Below are positions 7,701-45,697 of a stretch of DNA of 64,000 bases, piece by piece. The stretch lies in the IMG/VR virus record IMGVR_UViG_3300025778_000009; one strand, 5' to 3'. How positions within the stretch are numbered: the stretch's first letter is position 1; every line of letters starts with the position of its first letter. The notes beneath the pieces are model-generated. The model worked only from the letters and a program-made list of their open reading frames with translations, was not told the origin of the DNA and searched no databases. This DNA is from a virus (Duplodnaviria; Heunggongvirae; Uroviricota; Caudoviricetes). The position numbers and the translations under genes were made by a program.

Positions 7701-8370
7701 TTATAATGGTTCTATAGGTTATACAGGCTCAAAAGGTGATAATGGCGTTATTGGATATAACGGTTCTATAGGATATACAGGTTCTACTGGATTTGTTGGA
7801 TCTTCTGGAGCATCAGTTTATCAAGGCTATACTGGATCTACTGGTTATCAGGGTTCTAAAGGTGAAAGTTCTTATATTACCTCTGATACTGCACCTTCTA
7901 GTCCTTTAGTTGGAGATAGATGGTATAATACTACAGCTGGTATTGAACTAGTATGGACTTATGATGGTAATTCTTATCAGTGGGTAGAATTAGCTGCAAG
8001 CGGTTTCTTAGGTATGACCGGATATTCTGGTTCAATAGGAACTATAGGGTATACAGGTTCAGCTGCACAATCATTAATAAATTCAACTCAAAGTTCAATT
8101 TATGTTTTACAATCTTCGGATGATGGTAAATTAATTAATACATCTTATAGCGTTACTATACCTTCAAATGTATTTACAGCAGGTCAGACAATTACAATAT
8201 ATAACAGTAGCCAAACTAACGGTATTACAGTTACTCAAGGAAGCGGCACAACCGTATATTTGGTTAATACTACTTCTGTTGGAGACAGAACAGTAGGAGT
8301 AAATGGTATTGCAGTTATAATATGCGTGGATAATAATACTTTTGTTATTTCTGGTGGTGGTGTATCTTAA
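1747..8370 (+). CDS. giant (2207 aa) collagen-like fiber protein. It has six N-terminal ~75-aa repeated beta-domains separated by G-x-y tracts, long G-Y-T-G-S-x collagen-like tracts, three tandem ~100-aa domains, and a C-terminal globular region.
   Basis: Gly occurs at every third residue over hundreds of residues, in the pattern GYTGSIGFTGSIGYSGS. The module xQTIVAxGSxxYTLTxxxxxKNILVSVNGLLQVPDxDYTVSGxTIxFxxxPxxSDIEIxYF recurs six times. The block NPSAPVRQNFNGDG...FGPRGYTGS recurs three times. Confidence 0.8.
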   Translation: MSSDILNQHLIGNGSNTQFTLLEAVANTSSILVTINGLVSDPDRDYTVSDNLLLFNTAPYSTSDIEIRYLPVVPVGYTGSAGEPAGYTGSAGPVGAPSDIQTIVATGSSYYTLTSTPNSSKNILVSVNGLLQVPEADYTVSGSTINFNTIPVELSDIEIIYFGNVVGYRGSAGFQGSVGFTGSIGYSGNDGYTGSIGYTGSIGGAGPAGYTGSGGVAAPSGFQTFLTDNRTSYPIDRVVASSKDILVSVNGLIQVPDADYIVVGSNINFITKPSNNSDVEILYFDVAGFIGSTGYLGSTGFKGSSGDNGLPGFVGSQGYTGSSGFVGSMGYVGSGGVAAPSEIQTIVADGSSTYTLTRYVVDPKHIFVIVNGLIQIADRDYTAAATTLTFYNPPNNTSEIEIIYFEEALGYRGSVGYAGSAGTPGGSTGYTGSRGTDGSFGYTGSTGYVGSAGVGAPSSYQILYANGSNTVFTLTSSVDAAKNILVSVNGLLQIPDTDYTVSGTTILFTNPPSDTSHIEVLYFDVSGYRGSTGYMGSKGDPGGDTGYTGSIGPKGDIGPLGYTGSVGFGYTGSAGPVGAPTNYQTIVTTFNQSTYSLNQDVAQAVSIIVTINGLVQVPDQDYTLPTSNTITFTNTPNPNSDVEILYFSASGFTGSRGAVGYLGSVGYQGTVGFSGSAGITGYMGSAGSGFTGSIGYSGSTGFAGSRGSLGYTGSIGIGYTGSVGSGYTGSTGAGYTGSIGSLGYTGSQGFQGLTGYRGSTGSTGFVGSIGLTGSIGYTGSTGAGFVGSRGFVGSIGSLGYTGSIGFTGSIGYSGSRGDIGFSGSIGSLGYTGSIGIGYTGSTGAPGGITYNYRFINTPVVTPAFTQQGYAVFSATSNAIYVTSADLAGANTAYFIEYALKSVNNSIKGFVTLSRASTPYDVTIYSTNTAIYFPYPAVPAFHKIYLSYLSGNTTPYLDNEIINISFTLTGSQGPKGDKGDIGYTGSAGPAGPSGAFAGMGYTGSIGSLGYSGSIGYTGSIGIQGSIGPQGYTGSVANPSAPVRQNFNGDGVTNTYSIDIGQNVNGYTPYQLDVYINGVKLFNGIDVDVSSGNTIHFITPPRKDDNIEVVGSYIFSTNPDSAALFGPRGYTGSAGPPNGYQGSLGETGYVGSRGYTGSTPNPSAPVRQNFNGDGTTNTYYIDIGQNVNGYTPYQLDVYVNGVKLFNGIDVDVSSGNSIHFITPPRINDNIEIVGSYIFSTNPDSAALFGPRGYTGSQGPPNGYQGSIGDIGYTGSRGDTGFSGSAGTIGYSGSGVSFRSYYNNTTNYYINDLVEEDGATYIAIAPSIGEDPKTSNTYWQLFASKGYQGSRGYTGSTPNPSSPVRQNFNGDGVSRTYYIDIGQNVNGYTPYELDVFVNGIKLFNGLDVDVSSGNAIHFVIPPRINDNIEVVGSYIFSTNPDQNALFGPRGYTGSAGLNGAGNSFTKIVVSGQPDLVALEADTLQIVAGDNIVISTNNINSPKTLTISTSLPSGASGYTGSQGITGYIGSIGITGYTGSRGSDGVIGYSGSIGFTGSKGSDGTIGYTGSQGNIGNTGDTGYTGSSGIDGAVGYNGSIGFTGSKGSDGTIGYTGSTGPVAGYDTQIIFNDGSYANGSYGLTYNKSTQTLNIGNNLYVGGNIYITGNTTTFAANNLEIVDNMIYLNSNSEYSNPDIGFAANYNDGEYHHTGFFRDHATGIWKVFENYKPEPQASQFIDQSNNTFRIADFQANTIFANSIYANGSYGSFGQVLISNGSGIFWSTSALGFNGSTGYQGSLGDTGYKGSIGYQGSVGNQGIFGYQGSSGYQGSVGYQGTVGFQGSAGATADAGYQGSAGYQGSVGFQGSYGYQGTVGFQGSIGAVGYQGSASVGYNGSTGFNGSIGNRGPIGYTGSKGQGFNWRGAWDGTHNDFGDYQVYLPYDVVQYDLNTYVCIVLCYGDSGTPAARTDLWQIFAEGVVGYVGSKGQDGVLGYNGSIGYTGSKGDNGVIGYNGSIGYTGSTGFVGSSGASVYQGYTGSTGYQGSKGESSYITSDTAPSSPLVGDRWYNTTAGIELVWTYDGNSYQWVELAASGFLGMTGYSGSIGTIGYTGSAAQSLINSTQSSIYVLQSSDDGKLINTSYSVTIPSNVFTAGQTITIYNSSQTNGITVTQGSGTTVYLVNTTSVGDRTVGVNGIAVIICVDNNTFVISGGGVS

Positions 8371-9167: not shown

Positions 9168-11195
9168 ATGACAATTATTGATTTTCCTAATAGCCCAGCA
9201 GATGGTGATATCTATACATTTGGAAATAAATCCTGGCAATGGAATGCGTCAGGAAACTATTGGTTTGCAATATCAAAAACAATAGGCTATTCAGGCTCGA
9301 TAGGGTATACCGGATCTTCTGGTGCATCTGTATACATGGGATATACCGGGTCACAAGGATATTATGGTTCTACCGGGTTTCAAGGCTCTTTAGGCTATGA
9401 TGGTTCTATTGGATATACAGGATCTATAGGTTATACAGGTTCAACTGGATTTCAAGGATCAGCTGGGTTTGTAGGATCTCAAGGAACAAGTGGTGTTATA
9501 GGATATATTGGCTCTTCTGGTTTTACTGGTTCTACCGGGTTTAATGGTTCAGTAGGGTTTATAGGTTCTATAGGTTATTCTGGATCCATAGGTTACAACG
9601 GTTCTTTTGGTTTTACTGGTTCTACCGGGTTTAATGGGTCGGTAGGATTTACTGGATCACTAGGTTATACAGGATCTTTAGGTTACAGCGGTTCTATTGG
9701 GTATACTGGTTCTACAGGGTTTAATGGGTCGATAGGTTTTACAGGATCATTAGGTTTTACAGGATCATTAGGTTATAACGGTTCTACTGGATTTCAAGGG
9801 TCGTCAGGATTTAATGGATCTATAGGTTTTAACGGATCTATTGGATATACAGGTTCAATAGGGTATATAGGATCAGCTGGTTTTCAAGGGTCAACTGGTT
9901 TTCAAGGATCAGTAGGATTTATAGGGTCATTAGGATTTACTGGATCCCAAGGTGTTAACGGTGTAATAGGCTATAATGGATCGGTAGGATTTACAGGGTC
10001 AATTGGATATACAGGGTCTGCTTCTACTACACCGGGATATAATGGTTCTTTTGGGTATACTGGTTCGCAAGGTGCAAACAGTTTATACACACAATCTAAT
10101 ACTGCTCCTCTATATCCTAATCCAGGTGATAGATGGTTTAATACTGATATTGGAATTGAGTTAGTATACACAACAGATGCTAACGGTTCACAGTGGGTAG
10201 AAATTGCATCTAGCGGATTTTTAGGTCAAACTGGTTATAATGGGTCTCAAGGTGTTATCGGGTATACTGGATCACAAGGCATTCAAGGCATTATAGGTTA
10301 TTCTGGTTCAGTAGGATTTAACGGATCTATTGGATTTACAGGTTCAACAGGATTTACGGGCTCTACTGGTTTTAACGGATCGATTGGATTTGTAGGATCT
10401 ATAGGTTTTACAGGTTCTATTGGTACAGGGTATGTAGGTTCTAAAGGGTTTAATGGTTCAATAGGTGCAACAGGTTATGTTGGATCTACAGGATCAACAC
10501 CTACTATAACTTATACTTCACCTACTATGAACGTGTTTACATCTGGTTCTGGAACATATACAACACCAGGAAGTGTTGTGTGGATACGCGTACGAATGAT
10601 AGGCGGTGGCGGTGGCGGTGGTGGTGGTGGCACTAATAATTCAACCACATATAATTCAGTATATGCAGGAGCAAACGGAACTGCAACAACGTTTGGTGGT
10701 ACTTTACTAGTATGTAATCCTGGTCAAGGTGGTTTTGGTGCATATGATCTGCAATATGGTTTTGGAGGTACTGCTTCTATTGGTGATACTTCAAAAGCAT
10801 TTGGTATTGCATTAAACGGTGCATCTGGAGAACCAGGTTGGTCATCATCTCCTTCTACTTATGTTTCTGGTGGTTCTGGTGGTGCATCACCTTTTGGAGG
10901 TGCAGGGGCAAGAGGTTCTGGTGGTACAACCCCGGATGCAGTTTCAATTGCTGCGTCACCAAATACAGGAAGCGGCGGCGGAGGTGGTGGCAGCACTAAC
11001 GCTACTAACGCAAGAGGCGGCGGCGGTGGAGGCGCTGGAGGTTACATAGATGTTATAATAAGAATTCCAGATGCAACGTATTCATATGTAGTAGGTACTG
11101 GCGGAAGAGGTGGAGCTAACGGTACATCACAGTCTGGTTCAGGTAACACAGGTGCTTCTGGTATTATTATGATTGAAGAGCATTATGGTAGCTAA
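9168..11195 (+). CDS. collagen-like fiber protein with a conserved N-terminal adaptor module and a C-terminal Gly-rich module
   Basis: The N-terminus MTIIDFPNSPADGDIYTFGNKSWQWNASGNYW is followed by about 270 residues of G-x-y. It then carries the TAPLYPNPGDRWFNTDIGIELVYT motif, and the C-terminal ~230 aa are rich in poly-Gly, resembling the ORF at 15905. Confidence 0.75.
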   Translation: MTIIDFPNSPADGDIYTFGNKSWQWNASGNYWFAISKTIGYSGSIGYTGSSGASVYMGYTGSQGYYGSTGFQGSLGYDGSIGYTGSIGYTGSTGFQGSAGFVGSQGTSGVIGYIGSSGFTGSTGFNGSVGFIGSIGYSGSIGYNGSFGFTGSTGFNGSVGFTGSLGYTGSLGYSGSIGYTGSTGFNGSIGFTGSLGFTGSLGYNGSTGFQGSSGFNGSIGFNGSIGYTGSIGYIGSAGFQGSTGFQGSVGFIGSLGFTGSQGVNGVIGYNGSVGFTGSIGYTGSASTTPGYNGSFGYTGSQGANSLYTQSNTAPLYPNPGDRWFNTDIGIELVYTTDANGSQWVEIASSGFLGQTGYNGSQGVIGYTGSQGIQGIIGYSGSVGFNGSIGFTGSTGFTGSTGFNGSIGFVGSIGFTGSIGTGYVGSKGFNGSIGATGYVGSTGSTPTITYTSPTMNVFTSGSGTYTTPGSVVWIRVRMIGGGGGGGGGGTNNSTTYNSVYAGANGTATTFGGTLLVCNPGQGGFGAYDLQYGFGGTASIGDTSKAFGIALNGASGEPGWSSSPSTYVSGGSGGASPFGGAGARGSGGTTPDAVSIAASPNTGSGGGGGGSTNATNARGGGGGGAGGYIDVIIRIPDATYSYVVGTGGRGGANGTSQSGSGNTGASGIIMIEEHYGS

Positions 11196-11215: not shown

Positions 11216-11830
11216 ATGAGTATTAATTTTCCTGCTAACCCAACACCTAATCAAGTATACACACTAGGTAGTAAAACTTGGACTTGGAATGCAGTATATG
11301 GTTACTGGCAGGCAACATCTACAACCATTGGGTATACCGGTTCACAAGGTAACCAAGGTTACTTAGGTTATACTGGTTCAACTGGGTTTCAAGGATCAGT
11401 TGGATACCAAGGATCAACTGGGTATCAAGGATCTGTAGGTTTTCAAGGATCTGCTGGGTTTCAAGGATCTGCTGGGTTTCAAGGATCTGCTGGGTTTCAA
11501 GGGTCAGCAGGATTTAATGGATCTTTCGGTTATACAGGATCTCTTGGTTATGCTGGATCTATAGGTCTTGCAAATGCTGTAGTTAGTGATACTGCTCCAG
11601 GTACTCCTGCTACTGGCCAATTATGGCTAGACTCTTCTACTGGTCTGCTAAATATATGGTATTCTCCTTCTAATGTGTGGCTTTCGGTAACATCAGTAGG
11701 CATTCAAGGACAGACCGGTTATGCTGGTTCTGTGGGAAATCCTGGACCTGCAGGAGGAGCTACTGGTTATCAAGGGTCAGCTGGCTCTCTAAGTGCAGCT
11801 ATAGGTATATCAATTATTTTTGGAATTTAA
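11216..11830 (+). CDS. short collagen-like fiber protein sharing the N-terminal adaptor module
   Basis: The N-terminus is MSINFPANPTPNQVYTLGSKTWTWNAVYGYW, followed by G-(Y/F)-Q-G-S repeats and the motif DTAPGTPATGQLWLDSSTGLLNIWY. Confidence 0.7.
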   Translation: MSINFPANPTPNQVYTLGSKTWTWNAVYGYWQATSTTIGYTGSQGNQGYLGYTGSTGFQGSVGYQGSTGYQGSVGFQGSAGFQGSAGFQGSAGFQGSAGFNGSFGYTGSLGYAGSIGLANAVVSDTAPGTPATGQLWLDSSTGLLNIWYSPSNVWLSVTSVGIQGQTGYAGSVGNPGPAGGATGYQGSAGSLSAAIGISIIFGI

Positions 11831-16909: not shown

Positions 16910-18142
16910 ATGACCACGAAGATTTTCGTTTCCCAGATTGATAAAACTAATCCTGACGGGTATACAGGTTCTACCGGTGCCTTCTTAATCCTTGGTTCAA
17001 CTGGACCTTATTGGGCTAGTGGTGACGCTGCTGCACCTGTAGGATTTTTAGGTTCTATAGGTTTTCAAGGATCTTCTGGATTTCAAGGATCTTTTGGATA
17101 TACAGGGTATCAAGGATCACTAGGTTTTGTTGGTTATACTGGCTCAATTGGGTTTCAAGGTTCATCTGGATTTTTAGGATCATCAGGATTTCAAGGTTCT
17201 TTAGGTGATACTGGATATAAAGGATCTTTTGGTGATGTTGGTTTTAGAGGATCACAAGGTGTAATAGGTGATCAAGGTCCAGTAGGCTATCAAGGATCTA
17301 CTTCTTTTGCTGGTTCAGTAGGATTTCAAGGTTCTGTCGGCCCTCCTGGACCAATTAATATTGGATTTCAAGGGTCATTAGGTGACACAGGTTACCAAGG
17401 ATCAGCTGGTTTCCTAGGTTCTTCTGGATTTCAAGGTTCAGTAGGATTTTTAGGATCTTCAGGATTCTTAGGTTCAGCAGGATTTGCAGGTAGTGTAGGT
17501 TACGGTCTAACAGGCTATACTGGGTCAGTAGGTGCATCAGGAGGGCTAGGGCCTTTTGGTTATCAAGGATCTACTGGTTTTACTGGATCTGTACCCAATG
17601 TGAGTTTAACTGGTCTTGTTGATTTTCCTGCTTCATATACTTCTCCAAACGCATTTTTAAGAGTAAATGCTGCTGCTTCTGGTATTGTATTTGATACAAA
17701 TACTTACATTACTAATTCAATGTCTACTGGCATCAGTATGAATTATAATACATTGTTTAATCCAGTTCTTCTTGGATATGGTGAAGTAGTAAATCCAATT
17801 GGTAATGCAACAGTAACCGGTTTTGGTTTTACACCAACCGCTAATGGAAATATTGTTACTGTAACATTAACTGATTCTGTTGTTGGTGTTACAATAGGTA
17901 CTACTGGAATGGTGTCTGGTAGATTATATACCGCAACAATGTTTATTAAACAAGACGGTACAGGTAACAGAACAATAGATTGGTCTGCTTTAAATATAAA
18001 ATGGCCAACTGGTGAAAGTACGCCTCCTACAGGACCTGTTCTTTCTATACAACCAAATTATACAGATGTTATAACATTATATACTTTAAATGCAGGAACT
18101 ACATGGTATGGTATTTTAGCTATTAAAGGTTTTAACGGTTAA
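16910..18142 (+). CDS. collagen-like fiber protein with a non-collagen C-terminal domain
   Basis: About 200 aa of G-F-Q-G-S / G-Y-T-G-S repeats are followed by a Thr/Val-rich globular region. Confidence 0.7.
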   Translation: MTTKIFVSQIDKTNPDGYTGSTGAFLILGSTGPYWASGDAAAPVGFLGSIGFQGSSGFQGSFGYTGYQGSLGFVGYTGSIGFQGSSGFLGSSGFQGSLGDTGYKGSFGDVGFRGSQGVIGDQGPVGYQGSTSFAGSVGFQGSVGPPGPINIGFQGSLGDTGYQGSAGFLGSSGFQGSVGFLGSSGFLGSAGFAGSVGYGLTGYTGSVGASGGLGPFGYQGSTGFTGSVPNVSLTGLVDFPASYTSPNAFLRVNAAASGIVFDTNTYITNSMSTGISMNYNTLFNPVLLGYGEVVNPIGNATVTGFGFTPTANGNIVTVTLTDSVVGVTIGTTGMVSGRLYTATMFIKQDGTGNRTIDWSALNIKWPTGESTPPTGPVLSIQPNYTDVITLYTLNAGTTWYGILAIKGFNG

Positions 18143-23277: not shown

Positions 23278-24859
23278 TATTTACCTAGGTAATAAAAATC
23301 TTAAAAATAAAGATGTAAAAATATCTTTTACTCCAGAACAAATGGCAGAATTCTGGAAATGTGCTAATGATGTTGATTATTTTTGTGAAACATATGTAAA
23401 AATTGTATCTGTAGATAAAGGTTTGGTTCCATTTAAACCATTTCAATATCAAAAGAATATGTTTAAAACTTTTAATGATAATAGATATACAATTTGTAAA
23501 ATGCCTCGTCAGGTCGGTAAGACAACTGGTGTTGTAGGTTATTTACTACATAAGATTCTTTTTAATGAAAATTATAACATAGCAGTTCTTGCTAATAAAC
23601 AAGTACAGGCTAGAGAAATTCTTTCACGAATTCAACTTGCATATGAATGGTTACCTAAATGGCTTCAACAAGGAGTAGTTGAGTGGAATAAAGGTAACAT
23701 TGAACTTGAAAATGGTTCTAAGATACTTGCATCTGCTACATCATCATCTGCTGTTCGTGGTCAATCTTATAACTTAGTTTATCTTGACGAGTTTGCTTTC
23801 GTGCCTCGTAATGTTCAAGATGCATTCTTTGCCTCAGTATTTCCTACAATATCTTCTGGTAATACATCTAAGCTTCTTATAACATCTACACCTAATGGAA
23901 TGAATTTATTCTATAAACTGTGGGTTGATTCAGAAAATGGTAACAATGATTATGCACGAGTAGATGTTCATTGGTCTGATGTTCCTGGAAGAGACCAAGC
24001 CTGGGCTGATCAAATGATCCGTAGTACATCTATAGATCAATTTAGACAAGAATTTGAATGTGAATTTTTAGGATCTGCTAACACTCTTATTCATCCTTCT
24101 GCAATGGCTAAATTAACATTTATAAATCCAATTTCTGTAAATCAAGGTGTAAAATTATTTAAACAACCAGAAAAAGATCACGTATATGTTATGATAGTAG
24201 ATGTGGCAGAAGGACTAGGTCTTGATAGTTCCGCTTTTGTAGTTGTAGATATCACTATTAATCCATACGAGGTAGTTGCAACATATCAAGATGCTAGTAT
24301 TTCTCAGTTAATGTTTCCTAATGTACTTTATAATGTAGGAAGATATTTCAATGAAGCTGCTATTTTAGTTGAAACTAATATTGGATCACAGGTTGTTAAT
24401 ATTTTACAACAAGATTTAGAATATGAAAATGTCGTAATGACTAAAACTAACGGTAGAAAAGGTACTGTTATTGGTAGCGACGGTTTATCTAAATTAGGTG
24501 TAAAAACTACTAAATCAGTTAAAAGAATAGGTTGCGCAAATCTTAAGTCTATTATAGAAAATCAAAAAATAATATTAAATGATTATGATGTAATAAATGA
24601 ACTTTCAACTTATGTAATGGATGGTTCTTCTTATAATGCAGAAGACGGGTATCACGATGATTTAGTTATGTGTATGGTGCTTTTTGCATGGTTGATAAAT
24701 CAGCCATATTTTAAAGATATTTCTAATTCTGATATTAGATTACTATTGCTAGAAGGCCAAGAAGAAAACTTTACTCCTTTTGGATTTATTGATGATGGTC
24801 AAGAAGATCTAAATAGAGTATTAAACGATTCAGAATTTGCAAATTTTCTTCTAAATTGA
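23270..24859 (+). CDS. gp17: terminase large subunit (ATPase/nuclease)
   Basis: The Walker A motif KMPRQVGKTT matches T4 gp17 SRQLGKT. The Walker B motif is LVYLDEFAF. The position is syntenic. Confidence 0.85.
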   Translation: MADIYLGNKNLKNKDVKISFTPEQMAEFWKCANDVDYFCETYVKIVSVDKGLVPFKPFQYQKNMFKTFNDNRYTICKMPRQVGKTTGVVGYLLHKILFNENYNIAVLANKQVQAREILSRIQLAYEWLPKWLQQGVVEWNKGNIELENGSKILASATSSSAVRGQSYNLVYLDEFAFVPRNVQDAFFASVFPTISSGNTSKLLITSTPNGMNLFYKLWVDSENGNNDYARVDVHWSDVPGRDQAWADQMIRSTSIDQFRQEFECEFLGSANTLIHPSAMAKLTFINPISVNQGVKLFKQPEKDHVYVMIVDVAEGLGLDSSAFVVVDITINPYEVVATYQDASISQLMFPNVLYNVGRYFNEAAILVETNIGSQVVNILQQDLEYENVVMTKTNGRKGTVIGSDGLSKLGVKTTKSVKRIGCANLKSIIENQKIILNDYDVINELSTYVMDGSSYNAEDGYHDDLVMCMVLFAWLINQPYFKDISNSDIRLLLLEGQEENFTPFGFIDDGQEDLNRVLNDSEFANFLLN

Positions 24860-24864
24860 TTTTT

Positions 24865-24872
24865 TATAAATA
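24865..24872 (+). promoter_or_regulatory. T4-type late promoter TATAAATA upstream of the sheath gene
   Basis: Exact TATAAATA lies 47 nt upstream of the gp18 ATG. Confidence 0.5.
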
Positions 24873-24918
24873 AGTAATAAAAGATCTTAAAGTTTATATT
24901 ATATTAAAGGAGAAAACC

Positions 24919-27021
24919 ATGCCATTTCAAGTAAGTCCTGGTGTAAACGTATCAGAAATTGACTTGACAACAATCGTACCTGCAGTATCTACTACAACTG
25001 GTGCGTTTGCTGGAACATTCAGATGGGGTCCTGTAGATCAGGCATTCCTAGTATCTTCTGAAGATGAACTAGTTCAATATTTCGGTAAGCCTACAGCCAA
25101 CAATTACGAAACATTTTTTACTGCAGCTAACTTCCTAGCTTACGGTAATCAATTATATATTTCTAGAGCAGCTAATACTGGAACATATAATGCTTATGCA
25201 TATACTGGCGGTACTGCTGCAAACGTAACAGTAAGAAATTCTGATGATTTTAATATTCAAAGTGGATCTTTCTCTTCTAATCAGCCATTTATTGCTAAGT
25301 ATCCAGGTGCCCTAGGTAATTCTCTAAGAATTTCTATTTGCCCTACTGCAAATGCCTATAGCAGCATGCTAACAGCTGCAAATATGGCTAATAATTCACC
25401 AAATGGTAATGCAGCTACTTATGCTGCTAATACTACTGCACAATTCATGCTAGATATTGGTTCTAGTGTAGCTAACATAGTAGTTAATTGTGCTAATACA
25501 TCTGGTTTCGGTGCATTATTTGCTAATGATTCTGCATTTAACATATATTCAAACATCAACTTAAATGATTACATTAAAGTAGGAGATGCAACTACAGGTG
25601 TACAATATATGCAAGTTGCATATTCTACAATACCAGTCGTTGATCCTTCTAACGTACAACAATATTGGTTTAATATTGGTTTTACTGATGTATTAAAAGT
25701 AAAATCTGGTATTAATATGTCTTATCTTGGTGGAAACACTGCAGTTACTAGATTCTGGGAATTTTATAATGCAGTTGATGGTGCACCTGGTGTTTCTAAT
25801 TACGTAAATCAACGCACTTCTAATAATGCAATTAGAGATCAACTTCATATTGTTGTTGTTGATAATCAAGGTGTTATTACCGGTGTGCCTAATCAAATTT
25901 TAGAAGTATGGCCTAACCTTTCTCGTGCAACTGATGCAAAAGGTGAACAAGGTGGTTCAATTTATTACCGTCGCGTATTAGATCAATCATCTAGATATGT
26001 TTGGGCAGCTACAGATTATGTTGGTTCAGGTGTTACTAATAATCAGCTACAACCTCCTAACTTTAGCGCACCACACTATATAAACTTTGTAAAAGGTACA
26101 GATGGTCCAACAGAAAGTGATATTTCAATATCTGCAGTAGCAACAGCATATGATGTATTTGCTTCAGCAGAAAGTATTGATATTTCATTAGTATTAACTG
26201 GTAAAGCTTCAATATCAGCAGGGTCTGGAGAAGTTCTTCCAAATTACCTAATTGATAATATTGCTGAATCAAGAAGAGATTGCGTAGTTTTCGTATCTCC
26301 TCCTTATGAATCTGTAGTAGGTGTACCCGGTTTTGAAGGATCTAATTTAGTTGCATTCCGTAATTTATTAAGATCCTCTTCATACTCTGTACTTGATTCT
26401 GGTTACAAATATCAATATGACAAGTATAACGATACTTACCGTTGGGTTCCACTAAATGGTGATATTGCCGGTCTATGTGTAAGAACTGATAATACACGTG
26501 ATCCATGGTACTCACCAGCTGGGTTTAACAGAGGTCAGGTAAAAAATGTTGTTAAATTAGCATTTAATCCAAATCAAGCTAACCGCGACCTTCTTTATAA
26601 GAATGGTGTTAATCCAGTTGTTACATTCCCAGGTCAAGGAACTGTATTGTATGGGGATAAGACAATGTTAGCACAACCTTCTGCATTTGATCGTATTAAC
26701 GTACGTAGATTGTTCATTGTGCTTGAAAAAGCAATTTCTACTGCTGCTAAGTTTGCTCTATTTGAATTCAATGATGATTTTACTAGAGCAGCATTCCGCA
26801 ACCTCGTTGAACCATATCTAAGAGATGTTCAAGGTCGTCGTGGTATCTATGACTTTAAGGTAGTTTGTGACGCAACAAACAATACGCCAGAAGTTATTGA
26901 CGGAAATAGATTTGTAGGAGATATTTACATTAAACCAGCACGCTCAATTAACTTCATTCAGCTTAACTTCGTTGCAGTACGCACCGGTGTTCAGTTCGAT
27001 GAAATTGTTGGTAAGTTCTAA
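24919..27021 (+). CDS. gp18: tail sheath protein
   Basis: The N-terminus MPFQVSPGVNVSEIDL...GAFAGTFRWGPVDQAFLVSSEDELVQYFGKPT resembles T4 gp18 (GAFAG/KFQWGP..FG.PT). The length is 700 aa and the gene sits between terminase and tube. Confidence 0.85.
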   Translation: MPFQVSPGVNVSEIDLTTIVPAVSTTTGAFAGTFRWGPVDQAFLVSSEDELVQYFGKPTANNYETFFTAANFLAYGNQLYISRAANTGTYNAYAYTGGTAANVTVRNSDDFNIQSGSFSSNQPFIAKYPGALGNSLRISICPTANAYSSMLTAANMANNSPNGNAATYAANTTAQFMLDIGSSVANIVVNCANTSGFGALFANDSAFNIYSNINLNDYIKVGDATTGVQYMQVAYSTIPVVDPSNVQQYWFNIGFTDVLKVKSGINMSYLGGNTAVTRFWEFYNAVDGAPGVSNYVNQRTSNNAIRDQLHIVVVDNQGVITGVPNQILEVWPNLSRATDAKGEQGGSIYYRRVLDQSSRYVWAATDYVGSGVTNNQLQPPNFSAPHYINFVKGTDGPTESDISISAVATAYDVFASAESIDISLVLTGKASISAGSGEVLPNYLIDNIAESRRDCVVFVSPPYESVVGVPGFEGSNLVAFRNLLRSSSYSVLDSGYKYQYDKYNDTYRWVPLNGDIAGLCVRTDNTRDPWYSPAGFNRGQVKNVVKLAFNPNQANRDLLYKNGVNPVVTFPGQGTVLYGDKTMLAQPSAFDRINVRRLFIVLEKAISTAAKFALFEFNDDFTRAAFRNLVEPYLRDVQGRRGIYDFKVVCDATNNTPEVIDGNRFVGDIYIKPARSINFIQLNFVAVRTGVQFDEIVGKF

Positions 27022-27035
27022 GGGAGGAATGACAA

Positions 27036-27587
27036 ATGGCATTTAATATCAACGACATTCGTGCCCAACTTACACTTGGTGGTGCGAGACCTAGTTTATT
27101 CCAGGTTATTATTAGTAACCCAGTTAATCCAATTGCAGATCTAAAGTTGCCTTTCCTATGTAAGGCAGCTCAACTTCCTGCTTCATCTTTAGGCACTATT
27201 GAAGTACCATACTTTGGTAGAAAGCTTAAGATTGCTGGAGATCGTAAATTTGATCCATGGACTGTTACTATCATCAATGATGAAGATTTCTTAGTAAGAA
27301 ATGCTATGGAAACTTGGAATAACTCAATTCAACTTTATCAACAAAATATTACTGCTCTCGGAACTTCTGCACCAGCTGTGTATAAGTCTCAAGCAACTGT
27401 AACTCAGTTTGGTAAAGACGGTACAATTCTAAGAACATATCAATTCAATGGTATCTTCCCTGATCAAATCTCAGCTATTGATTTGGCATGGAATACTACT
27501 GATGAAATTGAAGATTTCCAAGTATCATTCCAGTATGACACATTCGAAGTATTGAATAGTATTACTGGTAATGCTGGTGGCGCTTAA
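27036..27587 (+). CDS. gp19: tail tube protein
   Basis: RPSLFQVIIS and KIAGDRKFDPWTVTIINDED match T4 gp19 RPNLFQVEIS and NVAGDRTFDDWTVTVMNDE. Confidence 0.9.
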   Translation: MAFNINDIRAQLTLGGARPSLFQVIISNPVNPIADLKLPFLCKAAQLPASSLGTIEVPYFGRKLKIAGDRKFDPWTVTIINDEDFLVRNAMETWNNSIQLYQQNITALGTSAPAVYKSQATVTQFGKDGTILRTYQFNGIFPDQISAIDLAWNTTDEIEDFQVSFQYDTFEVLNSITGNAGGA

Positions 27588-27598
27588 GAAATAATTTA

Positions 27599-27631
27599 AA
27601 AGAGACCCTATAAATACAATAGGGTCTCTTT
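27599..27631 (+). terminator. perfect 13-bp stem / 7-nt loop hairpin between the tube and portal genes, with a late promoter TATAAATA (27609..27616) embedded in it
   Basis: The left arm aaagagaccctat is followed by the loop aaataca and the right arm atagggtctcttt, then actttctt. The arms are exact reverse complements. Confidence 0.55.
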
Positions 27632-27655
27632 ACTTTCTTAAGGAAAATTATTATT

Positions 27656-29248
27656 ATGGTACAATTATTTGGATTTGAAATCAACCGCAAGGTTAAAGAA
27701 CCAATAGAATCATTTGCACCTCCTGTAAATGATGATGGCGCAGTAATTGTTGCAGCCGGTGGTGCATATGGCACCTATATTGATTTAGATGGTACTGCAC
27801 GTACTGAATCAGAACTAGTTTCCAAATATCGCGAAATTGCATTAGAAGCAGATATCGAAAGAGCTGTTGACGATATTGTCAATGAAGCCATTGATACTGA
27901 TGCAGAGAAAATTGTAGAAATTAATCTTGATAAAATTAAATATAGTGAAAATGTAAAAGAAAAAATTAGAGAAGAATTTGAAATTATAATTGAACTTCTT
28001 AATTTTCATAATGAAGCATATGATCTCTTTAAAAGATGGTATATTGATGGCAGAATGTATTTCCATGCTATCATAGACGAAAAAAACCCTAGAGAAGGTA
28101 TTAAAGAGCTTCGTTATATTGATCCTAGAAAAATTCGTAAGATAAGAGAAATTAAAAAGAAAACTAAAGGTGATACTACGGTTGCTTATGCTAATCGCGA
28201 GTATTATGTATATAATGAGCGTAATTTTTTACCTGCTGGTGGTAATGCAGGTCTTCCAATGGATGCAGGCGCTGTTAATGGCGTAAAAATTGCTGCAGAC
28301 TCTATTATTCATGTTACATCTGGTTTAATGGATAAAAACAACGCATTTGTTTATTCATACCTTCAAAAAGCTATTCGCCCTCTTAATCAATTACGTACAT
28401 TAGAAGATGCAACCGTTATTTACCGCATCTCACGTGCTCCAGAGCGTCGTATTTTTTATATTGATGTTGGCAATCTTCCTAAGATTAAAGCTGAACAATA
28501 TATGAGAGACATGATGACTAAACATAAGAATCGTTTAGTCTATGATGCTACTACCGGTGAAGTTCGTGATGATCGTAAATATATGACGATGCTAGAAGAT
28601 TATTGGTTGCCAAGAAGAGAAGGTAATCGTGGTACAGAAATTACTACTCTTCCAGCAGGTCAAAATTTAGGTGAGATGGCAGACGTTACATACTTTCAAC
28701 AGAAGTTATATCAATCTCTTAACGTTCCTGTATCGCGTCTTCAATCATCTTCTGAAGTATTCAGTTTAGGAAAAGCTACTGAAATTTCTAGAGATGAAGT
28801 AAAGTTTGTTAAGTTTGTAGGACGTCTGAGAAAAAGATTCTCTCATCTTTTAATGAAATCATTAGAAAAGCAATTAATTCTTAAAGGAATAGTATCTGAA
28901 AATGATTGGAATGAATTATCTAATCAAATTAATTTTGATTTTGCAATAGATAGTCATTTTGAAGAATTTAAAGATACAGAAATATTACAAAGTAGATTAG
29001 CTAATCTAACAGAAATACAGCCTTTTATTGGTAAGTATTTTTCTGAAGAATGGGTAAGAAAAAATATACTTCATCAAACAGATAAAGACATAGAAGATAT
29101 GATGGCTCAAATAGAAGCAGAGGTATCTAATCAGCCCGAGCCAGACGTAGAAACACAACCAGCTGAACAGCCTGCTAATGCTAATAACAACATTAAAATA
29201 CATGTAACAAGTTCAGCAGTACCAACTGTAGATGGTGCTGGTAGATAA
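27656..29248 (+). CDS. gp20: portal vertex protein
   Basis: FKRWYIDGRMYFHAIIDEKNPREGIKELRYIDPRKI and VIYRISRAPERRIFYIDVGNLP...LVYDATTGEV...MTMLEDYWLPRREG align closely with T4 gp20. Confidence 0.9.
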   Translation: MVQLFGFEINRKVKEPIESFAPPVNDDGAVIVAAGGAYGTYIDLDGTARTESELVSKYREIALEADIERAVDDIVNEAIDTDAEKIVEINLDKIKYSENVKEKIREEFEIIIELLNFHNEAYDLFKRWYIDGRMYFHAIIDEKNPREGIKELRYIDPRKIRKIREIKKKTKGDTTVAYANREYYVYNERNFLPAGGNAGLPMDAGAVNGVKIAADSIIHVTSGLMDKNNAFVYSYLQKAIRPLNQLRTLEDATVIYRISRAPERRIFYIDVGNLPKIKAEQYMRDMMTKHKNRLVYDATTGEVRDDRKYMTMLEDYWLPRREGNRGTEITTLPAGQNLGEMADVTYFQQKLYQSLNVPVSRLQSSSEVFSLGKATEISRDEVKFVKFVGRLRKRFSHLLMKSLEKQLILKGIVSENDWNELSNQINFDFAIDSHFEEFKDTEILQSRLANLTEIQPFIGKYFSEEWVRKNILHQTDKDIEDMMAQIEAEVSNQPEPDVETQPAEQPANANNNIKIHVTSSAVPTVDGAGR

Positions 29249-34599: not shown

Positions 34600-35982
34600 A
34601 TGAACGGTTTAAATGAAGAATTAGTTGCAAAGTGGAAGCCAGTGCTTGAGCACTCAGATCTTCCAAGAATTGCTGACGCCCACAAGCGTTCAGTAATTGC
34701 TACACTTCTAGAAAATACTGAAAAGGAAATGCGTTCTGAAGCAATGGCACGTGGTTCTTATAACGGTATTACATCTCTTAACGAAACTGGTATCAATGCT
34801 GTTGGTACTGGCGGTTATGGTTCAGCTGGCGGCTCAGGCGTTGCTGGTTACGATCCAATCCTTATCTCATTGATTCGTCGTGCAATGCCTAATCTTATTG
34901 CTTATGACGTTTGCGGTGTTCAACCAATGACTGGTCCAACTGGACTTATCTTTGCTATGCGTTCACAATATGCAAACTCAACTGCAAAAGGTTCAGAAAC
35001 ATTCTATGACGAAGTTAACACTGGTATGTCATCTGGCTTCAATGGCACTGGCGTATTTGGTCAAGGTACTGGTTCAGGCATTGGTGCTAACAACGTTGGT
35101 TCAACACCTGACAACACTGGCGGTGTTGGTTCATACAACTATCAAGCTGGTGCTCCTACATCAACAGCAGAAGCTTTTGGTACAGGTACTACATTCCCAG
35201 AAATGGCCTTCTCAATTGATAAGGTTTCTGTAACTGCAGTATCACGTGCTCTAAAGGCAGAATACACTATTGAATTGGCACAAGATCTAAAGGCTATCCA
35301 TGGATTGGATGCTGAGACTGAATTGTCAAACATTCTTCAGTCTGAAATTCTTGCTGAAATCAATCGTGAAGTTATTCGTGCTATTAACATTACTGCACGT
35401 CAAGGTGCTACAGACGGTACTACACAAGCTGGTATCTTCGATCTTGATACTGATTCAAACGGCCGCTGGTCAGTTGAAAAGTTCAAGGGTCTTATGTTCC
35501 AACTTGAAAGAGAAGCTAACAAGATCTCAAAAGACACACGTCGTGGTAAGGGTAACCTAGTTATCTGCTCTTCAGATGTTGCATCTGCTCTTCAGATGGC
35601 TGGCGTACTTGACTATACACCTGCTCTTGCTTCTAACAACCTACAAGTTGATGATACTGGCAATACATTCGCTGGTGTTCTAAACGGACGCTTCAGAGTA
35701 TATGTTGATCCATATACAACTGGTAACTATATGACTGTTGGCTATAAGGGTGCTAATGCATTCGATGCAGGTATCTTCTATTGCCCATACGTTCCACTAC
35801 AAATGGTTCGTGCAGTTGGTCAAGCAGACTTCCAACCAAAGATTGGATTTAAGACTCGTTATGGAATGGTAGCAAATCCATTTGCTCGTTCACAACAAGG
35901 TTCACCAAATCTTTCAGACGGTACACTATCTGCTTCTACTAACAGCTACTATCGTAGAACAATCATCCAAAACATCTTCTAA
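34600..35982 (+). CDS. gp23: major capsid protein
   Basis: The N-terminus LVAKWKPVLEHSDLPRIADAHKRSVIATLLENTEKEM is gp23-like. The 460-aa length is typical of cyanophage-type gp23. It follows gp22, and strong RBS and promoter-like sequence lie upstream. Confidence 0.85.
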   Translation: MNGLNEELVAKWKPVLEHSDLPRIADAHKRSVIATLLENTEKEMRSEAMARGSYNGITSLNETGINAVGTGGYGSAGGSGVAGYDPILISLIRRAMPNLIAYDVCGVQPMTGPTGLIFAMRSQYANSTAKGSETFYDEVNTGMSSGFNGTGVFGQGTGSGIGANNVGSTPDNTGGVGSYNYQAGAPTSTAEAFGTGTTFPEMAFSIDKVSVTAVSRALKAEYTIELAQDLKAIHGLDAETELSNILQSEILAEINREVIRAINITARQGATDGTTQAGIFDLDTDSNGRWSVEKFKGLMFQLEREANKISKDTRRGKGNLVICSSDVASALQMAGVLDYTPALASNNLQVDDTGNTFAGVLNGRFRVYVDPYTTGNYMTVGYKGANAFDAGIFYCPYVPLQMVRAVGQADFQPKIGFKTRYGMVANPFARSQQGSPNLSDGTLSASTNSYYRRTIIQNIF

Positions 35983-36010: not shown

Positions 36011-36040
36011 AAAAAAGGCCCCGAAAGGGGCCTTTTTCTT
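36011..36040. terminator. bidirectional rho-independent terminator between the convergent gp23 and minus-strand genes
   Basis: aaaaaaGGCCCCgaaaGGGGCCtttttc: a GC-rich 6-bp stem flanked by an A-tract and a T-tract. Confidence 0.8.
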
Positions 36041-37803: not shown

Positions 37804-38589
37804 TTACAGTTTAATTAAATCTTCTAGTTGATATTTCTGTGACATATAGCTAGAAACATTGTCTAAGACTGTTCTTTCTAAATCACCTTCACGTCTAGGA
37901 TATTCATTAACAGTAAAGTCTACATTATTAACTTTTTTAAAAGCTCTAATAATAGCTCTTACTGTATAACCAATACCAGTACCTAAATTTTCCAAACCAT
38001 TAGCAGGTTTGTCTATTGCTTTAATTAAAGCTTCACATATTTCGTTTACATGAACATAATCTCTAATACAAGTACCATCAGGTGTATTATAATCTGTACC
38101 GTAAAGATTAAATTCACCGGTATTTGCAGCTTTAATTAAATTATAAAGAAGACCGTCCGGGTTAGTAGGAGGAAAACCATCAGTTCCTATTACGTTATAA
38201 AATCTAAAAATAGTATAATTAAGATCTTTTTTATTGCAAACTTCTTTTACCACATCTTCACATGCACGCTTTGAAAATGCATATGGATTATTAGGGCTAG
38301 ATGCAGTCCCTGAAGAAGCAAAAATAAAATTATTATAAACAATCTTATTAAGTATATTAATTGTTCCACCAAGATTGTTATTATAATACTTAGAAGGTTC
38401 TTTAACCGATTCGTTAACCCTTACTAGTGCAGCAAGATGAATTACTGTATCTACAGAATAAAAAGTGAGTTTATCATTAATATCACCTTCATACTCTATT
38501 ACTTCATACAAGTCATTATAATGTGAAAGCATCTTTACTAAATGCTGACCAATATAACCCTTACTGCCTGTAATAATAATTTTTTTCAT
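37804..38589 (-). CDS. NAD(P)-dependent sugar epimerase/reductase (extended SDR family, GalE/RmlD-like)
   Basis: The N-terminal Rossmann motif is KIIITGSKGYIGQHL (TGxxGxxG). The catalytic YxxxK is NPYAFSKRACE. Confidence 0.7.
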   Translation of the reverse strand: MKKIIITGSKGYIGQHLVKMLSHYNDLYEVIEYEGDINDKLTFYSVDTVIHLAALVRVNESVKEPSKYYNNNLGGTINILNKIVYNNFIFASSGTASSPNNPYAFSKRACEDVVKEVCNKKDLNYTIFRFYNVIGTDGFPPTNPDGLLYNLIKAANTGEFNLYGTDYNTPDGTCIRDYVHVNEICEALIKAIDKPANGLENLGTGIGYTVRAIIRAFKKVNNVDFTVNEYPRREGDLERTVLDNVSSYMSQKYQLEDLIKL

Positions 38590-42143: not shown

Positions 42144-42324
42144 TATGTTTAACTTACAGGCTTGCTATTCTATCAATGATATACTATTCTCAGTATCATT
42201 GTTTACAATGATTTTAACAGTCATTGTTACATTTACGTATTTGATGGTTACGTTGATTAAAGATGCAGTGTTTGAAGTACAAGACATGAAATCTAAGAAA
42301 GATAGAGCCATAAATACTCAATGA
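42139..42324 (+). CDS. small membrane protein
   Basis: 61-aa hydrophobic ORF. Confidence 0.3.
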   Translation: MIMFNLQACYSINDILFSVSLFTMILTVIVTFTYLMVTLIKDAVFEVQDMKSKKDRAINTQ

Positions 42325-42334
42325 GGAGTAGTAT

Positions 42335-42865
42335 ATGGCAATTATTACAGATCAACCACAAAATATTAATTTTCTTTCACCGTTAGGGTTCAGGTTTAAA
42401 TTAGCCAGAACTCCTAATGTGAATTTTTTTGTTACTGATGTTAAACTGCCTTCTATAAGTTTAGGATTTGTAGAAGTTCCTTCACCGTTTAAAATTATTG
42501 AAATAGCTGGTAATAAATTAGATTACGGTGATTTTGAATTAACATTTAGATTAGATGAAGATTTAGAATCTTATTTTGAGATTTATAACTGGTTAACTGC
42601 TATCGGATTTCCAGAAGACTTTAAGCAATTTGCTAAATTAAAAAACTCTTCTAATGCATATGGCTCGCTTCAGACTCAATATTCAGACGGAACATTAACT
42701 ATATTAACAAATGAAATGGTTCCTAATTATGAAGTTAATTTTGTCAATATGTATCCTACAACAATTAGCGATATAAATTTTACAGTTACTGATACAGATG
42801 TAAATTATATTACGGCAACCGTTACATTTAAATACCAGATTTATCGCATTAATAAAGCCCAATAA
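42335..42865 (+). CDS. tail tube protein paralog (gp19-like fold; tube initiator/terminator candidate)
   Basis: LPSISLGFVEVPSPFKIIEIAGNKLDYGDFELTFRLDEDLESYFEIYNW aligns with the gp19 segment of this window, LPASSLGTIEVPYFGRKLKIAGDRKFDPWTVTIINDEDFLVRNAMETW. Confidence 0.55.
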   Translation: MAIITDQPQNINFLSPLGFRFKLARTPNVNFFVTDVKLPSISLGFVEVPSPFKIIEIAGNKLDYGDFELTFRLDEDLESYFEIYNWLTAIGFPEDFKQFAKLKNSSNAYGSLQTQYSDGTLTILTNEMVPNYEVNFVNMYPTTISDINFTVTDTDVNYITATVTFKYQIYRINKAQ

Positions 42866-42874
42866 AGGTTTGTT

Positions 42875-43309
42875 ATGAAACTAGATGATATTATGGAAAT
42901 GTGGTCTGAGGACTGCAATGTGAATCGACTTGAGTTGGGTGAAGAGAGTCTTAAGCTTCCTAAACTTCACAGTAAGTATCTTCGCATTTTTACAGAAGAG
43001 AGACTTTTACTCCGTAGATTAGAAGGTGAACGTAAAGAGCTTATACTTCTTAAGCACGATTATTATCGCGGTGTAATGCCAGAAGAAGATTTAAGATCAA
43101 ACGGTTGGGAGCCGTTCAGGCTTAACGTTCTTAAATCAGACATACCAATGTATATTGAAGCAGATCAAGACATCGTCAAATTAAACCTTCGTGTTGCTAT
43201 GCAGCAGGAAAAGGTAGACGCATTAGAATCAATTATCCGCTCTATAAATAATAGAGGGTACTTGATTAAGAATGCGATAGAATTTGAGAAATTTAAAGTG
43301 GGCGCGTGA
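42875..43309 (+). CDS. uvsY: recombination mediator UvsY
   Basis: The 144-aa protein carries LKHDYYRG, like T4 UvsY LKARLDYYSG. Its size and its position next to UvsW and gp55 also fit. Confidence 0.65.
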   Translation: MKLDDIMEMWSEDCNVNRLELGEESLKLPKLHSKYLRIFTEERLLLRRLEGERKELILLKHDYYRGVMPEEDLRSNGWEPFRLNVLKSDIPMYIEADQDIVKLNLRVAMQQEKVDALESIIRSINNRGYLIKNAIEFEKFKVGA

Positions 43310-45139: not shown

Positions 45140-45697
45140 ATGGCAGATCCCAAGAAGAATAAGCATTATATTGATAATAAAAGATTTTATACTGAGATTT
45201 TAAAGCATAAAGCCGACGTAGAAAAAGCAAAAGCAGATGGTTTAGATGAACCAAGAATACCACCTTATATAGGTGAGTGCCTCTTTAAAATTGCAACAAG
45301 ACTATCATTAAAACCAAATTTTGTTAGTTATACTTTCAGAGAAGAAATGATATCTGATGGATTAGAAAATTGTATAAATTATTTTCACAATTTTAATCCA
45401 GAAAAATCTGACAATCCATTTGCCTATTTCACACAGATTATTTGGTTTGCTTTTATTAGACGTATTGATAAAGAAAAAAAACATCTTTATATTAAACAAA
45501 AGACATTAGAAAATTTTTATTTTGAAGGTATGTTGGCTGAACAAGGTATTGGTGAAGACGACAGGACCGTAACTGTTAATTTAGATAACGAGTATATGAA
45601 GGGCTTAGTTGAATCTTATGATAAGAAGCAGCTAGAAAAACAAAAGAAAAATAAAGCCCGTAAGTTAGGAGTGGAGAAATTCTATGAATCAGAATAG
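45140..45697 (+). CDS. gp55: late-transcription sigma factor
   Basis: Exactly 185 aa, as in T4 gp55. HYIDNKRFYTEIL matches T4 NYVNNKELLQAII. NPFAYFTQIIWFAFIRRIDKEKK matches T4 [23 protein letters not shown]. Confidence 0.85.
   Translation: MADPKKNKHYIDNKRFYTEILKHKADVEKAKADGLDEPRIPPYIGECLFKIATRLSLKPNFVSYTFREEMISDGLENCINYFHNFNPEKSDNPFAYFTQIIWFAFIRRIDKEKKHLYIKQKTLENFYFEGMLAEQGIGEDDRTVTVNLDNEYMKGLVESYDKKQLEKQKKNKARKLGVEKFYESE

Follow-up and report, generated by a model that had tools for sequence, protein, structure and literature searches.

A hairpin enclosing a late promoter motif between the tail tube and portal genes of an uncultured T4-like phage

We found that the spacer between the tail tube and portal genes of an uncultured T4-like myovirus contains a 33-nt element in which a perfect hairpin encloses TATAAATA, the -10 element of the late promoters of T4-type phages. 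The stem of the hairpin covaries among relatives, the core of the motif (ATAAATA) does not vary, and the phage encodes a homologue of the late sigma factor gp55. The explanation that we favour, with a little better than even confidence, is that the hairpin acts as a terminator or attenuator of transcription in which a late promoter is nested; we rank it above a hairpin with a post-transcriptional role that is combined with the same promoter. The design is not new in kind: it is a compact late-promoter form of one that is known in T4-type phages.

The window, i.e. the whole stretch of DNA that was analysed (IMGVR_UViG_3300025778_000009, 64 kb, G+C 34%), is part of the genome of this phage. The genes are ordered as tail fibres, gp13/14/15-like genes, the small and large subunits of the terminase, sheath, tube and portal, followed by two unknown genes, the prohead protease, the scaffold and the major capsid protein (34600-35982), and further downstream by a gp3-like gene, UvsY, UvsW, gp55, gp47 and gp46. 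A megablast of the region against the GenBank phages returned no match, which means that there is no close cultured relative at the DNA level, and relatives were therefore sought at the protein level. The best identity of a GenBank phage portal to that of the window was at most 57%, the nearest portals being those of Stenotrophomonas DLP6, cyanophages, Sinorhizobium phiM12 and Pelagibacter phage Mosig. Some auxiliary-type genes were also present, encoding a peptide deformylase, a QueE-like radical SAM protein and a nucleotide-sugar epimerase (50879-51358, 51568-52458 and 37804-38589, respectively). The features to which we refer below are (in window coordinates):

24919-27021: sheath gene
27036-27587, + strand: tail tube gene, gp19-like (PHROG 45 tail tube, E=2.5e-56)
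27583-27591, + strand: 5' strand of the outer helix, CUUAAGAAA, overlapping the tube stop codon (MFE fold)
27599-27611, + strand: left (ascending) arm of the hairpin, AAAGAGACCCTAT (sequence; covariation across 18 sequences)
27609-27616, + strand: TATAAATA, putative T4-type late promoter -10 element, -13 to -6 (exact match; positional enrichment; invariance)
27612-27618, + strand: hairpin loop, AAATACA (sequence, RNA fold)
27619-27631, + strand: right (descending) arm of the hairpin, ATAGGGTCTCTTT (sequence; covariation)
27622, + strand: predicted start (+1) of the portal late transcript, G27622 (from the T4 -13/-6 rule)
27629-27639, + strand: U-rich tract TTTACTTTCTT after the G/C-containing stem core (tail score 3.28)
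27634-27642, + strand: 3' strand of the outer helix, UUUCUUAAG, covering the first 3 nt of the portal Shine-Dalgarno sequence (MFE fold)
27640-27644, + strand: portal Shine-Dalgarno sequence (SD), AAGGA (read from the sequence)
27656-29248, + strand: portal gene, gp20-like (PHROG 213, E=8e-202; Pfam Portal_T4, E=8e-175)
45140-45697, + strand: gp55-like late sigma factor, 185 aa (PHROG 234, E=5.5e-58; T4 gp55, PDB 7D7C chain F, E=1.8e-15)

The tube-portal spacer (68 nt) reads TAA-gaaataattta-AAAGAGACCCTAT-AAATACA-ATAGGGTCTCTTT-actttcttAAGGAaaattattatt-ATG, in which TAA is the tube stop codon (27585-27587). The earlier note had described a perfect 13-bp hairpin between the tube and portal genes, and it is indeed there: the inverted repeat (27599-27631, 33 nt) consists of a perfect 13-bp stem (27599-27611 paired with 27619-27631) and a 7-nt loop, and the identity of both flanking genes was confirmed with PHROG and Pfam, the match of the tube gene to Pfam Phage_T4_gp19 (E=1.8e-5) being under the curated cutoff. 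The stem begins 11 nt past the tube stop codon and ends 24 nt before the portal ATG. It includes five G-C pairs and its core has a folding energy of -14.7 kcal/mol. The RNA of 27580-27660 folds with -24.7 kcal/mol (z=-5.4), a stability that was reached by none of 200 shuffled sequences. Perfect stems of at least 13 bp with loops of 3-10 nt did not occur in any of 30 Markov shuffles of the window, and those of at least 10 bp occurred on average 1.2 times per shuffle. Between the first tail-fibre promoter and the terminator that follows the capsid gene, the element is the sole perfect stem of at least 10 bp before that terminator (36012-36037), which is the only other such stem in the 34-kb late cluster. 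In a sliding 60-nt MFE scan the hairpin does not stand out, as the G+C-richer collagen-like tail-fibre repeats fold equally well, and its uniqueness is for that reason restricted to perfect stems and intergenic spacers. These repeats, which have the lowest local folding energies of the late region, are found in several tail-fibre-like genes (1747-8370, 9168-11195, 11216-11830 and 16910-18142), one of which encodes a protein of 2207 aa.

A second copy of the hairpin arms was not present in the 64-kb window, where only chance 9-12-mers were found, inside coding sequence. A search of Rfam yielded no family at the gathering threshold, and near the site only sub-threshold generic hairpins (e.g. Thr_leader, with 24 bits against a cutoff of 55). 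Two further inverted repeats in the window are both long and perfect. That of 14 bp (AGGTTCTTTTCAGT-TGATTTTTT-ACTGAAAAGAACCT, 54690-54726) lies in the spacer after an ORF that ends at 54677 and has no U-tract, and that of 13 bp (GTTGTTAGTGAAC-CCTGGTA-GTTCACTAACAAC, 61465-61497) lies within the ORF 61406-62071.

The hairpin is conserved in relatives. A scan of IMG/VR by portal returned 80 loci, among which 17 distinct relatives (L001, L047, L019, L002, L003, L004, L006, L007, L009, L010, L011, L012, L013, L014, L018, L020 and L034) were aligned with the window, giving an alignment of 18 sequences with portal identities of 94-59%. Every relative down to ~59% portal identity has kept a hairpin of 9-15 bp with ATAAATA in the loop or at the top of the left arm. 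The motif is invariant in the alignment, while the remaining loop bases vary and the loop measures 5-11 nt; the stem sequences differ widely (e.g. GAGACCC, GAGTCCC, GAAGCTC, GGGCCGTC, GAGAGTCATC and GCGGGCTATC). RNAalifold predicted ten consensus pairs, nine of which show compensatory double changes. In this structure 98.3% of the cells are paired, as compared to 39-58% when the partners are slid by 1-3 columns, and the covariation score (0.73) was not reached by any of 500 shuffles (0.28±0.03). The covariation of the stem and the invariance of ATAAATA together indicate that selection acts on both the base pairing and the motif. Counted over the alignment, the stem pairs comprise 222 Watson-Crick pairs, six G.U pairs and two doubtful A.C pairs. 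The surplus of G.U over A.C leans weakly towards pairing in the sense-strand RNA, although structure at the RNA level and at the DNA level is not strictly separable because the stems are almost purely Watson-Crick.

The motif behaves as a T4-type late promoter, for which the computational support is strong. T4 late promoters have a -10 element, TATAAATA or NATAAATA, located at -13 to -6 relative to the start and without need of a -35 element, and the first T of the motif is poorly conserved in other T4-like phages (PMC1524935). The spacer contains an exact TATAAATA (27609-27616) that ends 39 nt before the portal ATG, i.e. a short distance upstream of a late gene on the coding strand; its first 3 nt belong to the left arm and the other 5 nt to the loop. 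In the 64 kb the octamer is found only six times, always on the + strand, where 15.7 occurrences are expected, so its position within a 33-nt hairpin is not an effect of composition. The ATAAATA core likewise shows avoidance and strand bias, with 14 copies on the + strand and two on the - strand; it is depleted relative to shuffles, and 20 permuted 7-mers have on average 25 copies on the + strand. In 11 of its 14 + strand copies the core ends 10-50 nt before the start of a + strand ORF, against 11% for the permuted 7-mers (binomial P=8e-9). The ORFs concerned encode tail fibres, gp13, sheath, portal, the product of an ORF at 29292, scaffold, capsid, the gp3-like protein and UvsW. Positional enrichment, depletion, strand bias, the presence of a gp55 homologue and invariance within a variable loop thus all point to a T4-type late promoter. 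The gp55-like protein would be the expected trans-acting factor for reading TATAAATA; for gp33 and gp45 no candidate was recognised in those ORFs of the window that were scanned, and their genes may lie outside it. As for sigma70-like promoters, only one weak site (9/12, 27629-27657) was found near the spacer, and such sites are not enriched.

According to the T4 rule, the portal transcript would start at G27622, the fourth base of the descending arm, and since this start lies inside the arm the transcript cannot form the hairpin; its leader would have a structure of only -2.6 kcal/mol. The proposal of the earlier note that a gp55-dependent late promoter for the portal gene lies in the hairpin is thus well supported computationally by the position statistics, the gp55 homologue and the invariance of ATAAATA. 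Its suggestion that the new transcript carries half of the stem holds by the T4 rule, with 10 of the 13 nt of the right arm kept, but the start would lie 6 nt after the motif and not about 10.

A hairpin is not a general part of the late promoters of this phage, and that possibility was discarded: eight of the 11 putative late promoter regions in the window are unstructured. Three sit in hairpins, namely the one at 27599-27631 and two others, at 42307-42339 and 43219-43276. The earlier note had not listed these two, nor had it mentioned the outer helix described below or the existing descriptions of the design. The hairpin at 42307-42339 (-14.7 kcal/mol, z=-4.1) is of the classical type of T4 e and soc and lies upstream of the gp3-like tail-tube paralogue (ATG 42335). 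Its left arm GCCATA is part of CATAAATA (42309-42316), its right arm TATGGC holds the start codon, and the end of the SD (GAGGAG) is taken up in an inner stem (TACTC/GAGTA); the predicted late transcript would start between the arms and would hence be unmasked. At 43219-43276 there is a hairpin that is long but imperfect (-19.8 kcal/mol, z=-4.9), with TATAAATA (43243-43250) in its loop and left arm; it lies within the 3' end of uvsY and just upstream of uvsW, for which TTG 43284 or a later codon is the candidate start. A promoter at 43243-43250 would be in keeping with T4, in which uvsW is transcribed from a late promoter. An AT-only inverted repeat, GATTTTTTAT / ATAAAAGATC (24855-24895), also flanks the sheath promoter TATAAATA (24865). 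Its 10 bp include one U.G pair in the window but are all perfect in L047 (~1120-1150), and the repeat is also found in L003 (~1235-1265). With -5.9 kcal/mol (z=-0.4) this repeat is very weak, and it may be an effect of composition.

The MFE fold contains, outside the main hairpin, a second helix of 9 bp between the flanks. The flank-flank duplex has an energy of -9.1 kcal/mol (z=-2.6 relative to shuffled flanks); in the closest relatives it is stronger (z -3.4 to -4.1) and spans the whole SD, and the signal is absent in five of the 18 sequences. The main stem touches neither SD nor AUG, its end being 8 nt away from the SD. The outer helix covers three of the five nucleotides of the SD in the window and all five in L001, L047 and L019; in these three relatives the SD is unpaired with a probability of ~0.05. 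As a measure for comparing transcripts this probability proved misleading, because the pyrimidine-rich late leader also pairs with the SD, if very weakly (-2.6 kcal/mol), and it was replaced by opening energies. Opening of the SD in the window is predicted to cost 4.2 kcal/mol on read-through RNA versus 2.6 kcal/mol on the late transcript; the means over the 18 sequences are 3.7 and 2.1 kcal/mol, respectively (p=0.0013). The folding energies thus suggest a partial masking of the SD on read-through RNA that is real but modest.

With respect to termination, the element ranked as the top terminator-like site in our scan. It provides a stable, G+C-containing stem-loop (13 bp, five G-C pairs) right after a stop codon, and its tail score of 3.28 corresponds to about the 98th-99th percentile of the 15-mers of the window (95th percentile 2.5, 99th percentile 3.4). 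The terminator after the capsid gene (36012-36037) scores 4.93; it is canonical and looks bidirectional (AAAAAGGCCCC-GAAA-GGGGCCTTTTT followed by CTTTATTT), and is located between the capsid gene on the + strand and convergent genes on the minus strand. In an intrinsic terminator the stem is followed at once by a U-tract of about 7-9 nt without interruptions; the tract that follows the hairpin is interrupted (UUUACUUUCUU), which, like the small number of G-C pairs in the stem (only five), counts against termination. Among the relatives that keep hairpin and motif the tail scores range from 0.47 (L009 and L013) to 4.35 (L002): the window phage and its nearest relatives have U-rich tails (2.6-4.4), other hairpin keepers have poor ones (0.5-1.5), and L009, L013, L003 and L011 are essentially devoid of a U-tract. 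The hairpin that T4 itself has between genes 19 and 20 also has no U-tract (tail score 0.8). In a separate clade, a textbook terminator (GGGAGCTTCGGCTCCCTTTTTTGTTTTT) is found upstream of the portal gene, with TATAAATA following ~10 nt later. Since the U-tract is not conserved among hairpin-keeping relatives, intrinsic termination may not be what the hairpin has been conserved for. The terminator or attenuator role that the earlier note proposed therefore stands only as plausible: the U-rich tail (3.3) speaks for it in this phage, where the hairpin looks like a moderate intrinsic terminator, and the variation of the tract in relatives speaks against it.

The association between a hairpin and a late promoter motif at this junction extends well beyond the close relatives. 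We classified 67 distinct portal-upstream spacers (from IMG/VR, T4 and ten cultured phages) by an automated and somewhat lenient procedure, with the following result:

Motif inside hairpin: 24 of 67 spacers
Hairpin, then motif within 25 nt: 11 of 67 spacers
Motif, then hairpin: 2 of 67 spacers
Hairpin without nearby motif: 29 of 67 spacers

T4 was placed in the last class because its TATAAATA lies ~30 nt further on; at the same genomic position as here, it has GGGGAGAAATCCCC and then TATAAATA ~30 nt downstream. The motif is clearly inside a hairpin in the Synechococcus phages S-MbCM7 (GTGTTTCTAGTT-CCATAAAT-AACTAGAAGCAC) and Bellamy, and less so in Pelagibacter phage Mosig. In S-ShM2, TATAAATA appears by eye in the loop of a weak 6-bp stem, although the classifier chose another hairpin and called the spacer 'hairpin then motif'. 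CTAAATA immediately follows the hairpin in S-SSM4 and ACG-2014d, the motif overlaps the start of the hairpin in S-CREM1, and the T4 18-19 spacer has two hairpins that each abut ATATAAATA. Hairpin and motif are thus separate or abutting in T4 and several other phages, whereas in the clade of the window they are fully nested within 33 nt. As it is seen across the 67 spacers, including those of T4 and cultured phages, the pairing of a hairpin with a late promoter at the tube-portal junction is, judged from these sequences, ancient and widespread, full nesting being one register of it. The T4 19-20 hairpin (L081, 3131-3144; GGGGA-GAAA-TCCCC) is also the core of GGGTGGGGA-GAAA-TCCCCACCC, found at the same junction in four uncultured phages (L060, L071, L072 and L075) with only ~56% portal identity, and this could reflect either conservation or convergence on a hairpin with a G-run and a GNRA loop.

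Two known groups of elements resemble the one described here. The PeSLs (promoter-early stem-loops) of the T4-type phages RB49/phi1, PST and nt-1 are composite promoter/terminator cassettes in which the stem-loop is mostly positioned between -35 and -10 or overlaps the -10 box, and which have been proposed to stop upstream transcription from accumulating and so to avoid over-expression of downstream genes (PMC2839356, PMC4122927). Experiments with lacZ fusions demonstrated that PeSLs terminate or attenuate transcription from upstream (Arbiol et al. 2010, PMC2839356; Comeau et al. 2014, PMC4122927), a precedent in T4-type phages for terminators that overlap a -10 box. In both cases a stem-loop overlaps a promoter between an upstream stop codon and a downstream SD, and the register of stem-loop and promoter varies, between copies for the PeSLs and between phage lineages here. 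PeSLs, however, have sigma70-like early promoters (-35, -10 and an AT-rich upstream region) and are sequence-conserved repeats that are scattered in hyperplastic regions and mediate recombination, whereas the present element has a gp55-type late motif, is not repeated in the window and lies between two core structural genes. Membership of the PeSLs was discarded on the basis of the late, not sigma70-like, promoter and the single copy in the 64-kb window.

The other group consists of late promoters within hairpins that sequester a ribosome-binding site, known for T4 e (lysozyme), soc, I-TevI/II/III and segB, for Aeh1 mobE and likewise, with sequestration of the SD, for homing-endonuclease loci of marine metagenomes; in the devices of the e/soc type TATAAATA lies in the 5' half of the hairpin and only late transcripts are translated (PMC3014915, PMC2988022, PMC2677866). 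The element shares with T4 e, soc, I-TevI and mobE the position of TATAAATA in the 5' strand or loop, such that RNA started upstream folds and late RNA escapes. It differs in that their 3' strand holds the SD and/or AUG, while here only the weaker outer helix reaches the SD, in that theirs separates early/middle from late RNA, while here both neighbouring genes are late, and in its terminator-like U-rich tail. The element thus shares the logic of the PeSLs and of the T4 e/soc-type hairpins but belongs to neither class, because it has a late promoter, occurs in a single copy and has a main stem that leaves the SD unsequestered. In the literature searched we found no account that treats the tube-portal spacer as a terminator with a late promoter nested in it, and the corresponding spacers of T4 and of cultured Kyanoviridae do not appear to have been analysed as units there either.

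We propose that two late transcription units are separated here by the 33-nt element, which would be a composite and self-insulating boundary. As DNA, TATAAATA (27609-27616) would serve as a gp55-type -10 that starts the portal/head transcript at about G27622. As RNA, the complete inverted repeat would be found only on transcripts entering from the sheath-tube unit upstream; on these the 13-bp hairpin, followed by UUUACUUUCUU, would in this phage probably terminate or attenuate a large share, and on the RNA that reads through the 9-bp outer helix would also mask part of the portal SD. Transcripts from the embedded promoter do not contain the ascending arm and would be neither terminated nor masked, and because they cannot fold, any effect of the hairpin on RNA would be limited to upstream-initiated RNA. 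The likely purpose would be to reset, ahead of the low-copy portal gene, the transcript flux to which five late promoters upstream have contributed, so that this gene is expressed from a promoter of its own. The portal is made up of 12 copies. Sheath and tube are present in 138 copies each in the T4 virion (PMC3004832), and from this difference we infer a stoichiometric rationale for the boundary.

A possible, but clearly less probable, alternative is that the promoter is the same and the hairpin is not a terminator but has a post-transcriptional role on the sheath-tube RNA, either as 3'-end protection or a processing stop that stabilises the abundant tail mRNAs, or, with the outer helix, as a translational mask of the portal gene. 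This would agree with a hairpin that covaries while the U-tract varies (tail scores down to 0.47) and with the T4 19-20 hairpin that has no U-tract. The outer helix does reach the SD, which is fully covered in L001, L047 and L019, two other late promoters of the window sit in hairpins, of which the one at 42307-42339 is of the SD/AUG-sequestering type, and there is precedent in T4 e, soc, I-TevI and Aeh1 mobE (PMC3014915, PMC2988022, PMC2677866). Yet the main stem misses SD and AUG, the masking is weak (~1.5-4 kcal/mol) and absent in five of the 18 sequences, and with upstream genes that are late too there is no discrimination between early and late RNA to make; moreover, the tail is U-rich in the window phage and its nearest relatives (2.6-4.4). 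Termination may also have been added in some lineages, including the window phage, to a conserved role in 3'-end protection, processing or masking.

The remaining explanations concern the DNA itself or chance. The repeat might act at the DNA level, as a cruciform or single-strand hairpin that shows the -10 in its loop, or as the operator of a dimeric regulator over the promoter, in analogy to the hairpin promoters of the phage N4 virion RNA polymerase and to I-TevI at its own late promoter, respectively. Stems that are nearly all Watson-Crick, and thus symmetrical on both strands, would suit such a role, as would a motif that within the clade of the window is always in or at the loop, and operators that overlap T4 late promoters are known (PMC2988022). 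We nevertheless consider a DNA-level role very unlikely, because eight of the 11 putative late promoters of the window have no hairpin, because the hairpin lies before, after or around the motif in other lineages so that the register is not essential for the promoter, and because the arms differ completely and the loop varies from 5 to 11 nt, which fits base pairing and not protein half-sites at a fixed spacing; the non-Watson-Crick pairs, too, are mostly sense-strand G.U (six versus two doubtful A.C). Least credible of all is a coincidental overlap, in which the TAT...ATA at the two ends of the motif would have seeded a palindrome and either the hairpin or the promoter would be non-functional. 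TATAAATA is partly self-complementary and short AT-only stems are found around the motif elsewhere (e.g. at 24866), but such a coincidence would account neither for compensatory changes at nine of ten stem pairs, with a score that none of 500 shuffles reached, nor for an ATAAATA that is invariant in a variable loop, nor for a perfect 13-bp stem that is unexpected by chance. A further step, which we regard as unlikely, would be that the nesting itself is functional and that hairpin and promoter are one mechanistic unit. If this unit served to clear the promoter, polymerases from the tail genes would come off the DNA no more than 10-20 nt into the portal unit, occlusion would be prevented, and portal output would be strictly independent of upstream flux; if it served DNA extrusion, replicating or supercoiled DNA would offer the -10 as a single-stranded loop to the gp55 polymerase, which would be a new coupling of late transcription to the state of the DNA.

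Under the preferred explanation, the spacer would contain a covariation-supported, self-insulating promoter/terminator in 33 nt, of which the terminator would hit only RNA that has not begun at its own promoter, and this suggests how T4-like phages could uncouple the abundant tail proteins from the 12-copy portal. It would carry the concept of composite promoter/stem-loop cassettes, known for early genes from the PeSLs, over to late genes and to the large uncultured and marine branch of the T4-like phages. The element overturns nothing that is known and is a tidy example rather than a surprise; it could be of use for the annotation of late transcription units in metagenomic phages and as a compact part for synthetic phage or bacterial circuits.

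We also observed a variant of the junction in another IMG/VR phage, L005 (IMGVR_UViG_3300008113_001435), where a 205-aa ORF with a NUMOD3 motif (1502-2175) lies between the hairpin/promoter/SD cassette and the portal gene, the ATG of the latter being within 2 nt of the stop codon of this ORF. The ORF probably encodes a free-standing homing endonuclease, which, judged from this arrangement, has taken over a pre-existing hairpin/promoter/SD cassette. Capture of this type may be the source of some of the published regulatory hairpins of endonuclease genes that contain TATAAATA.
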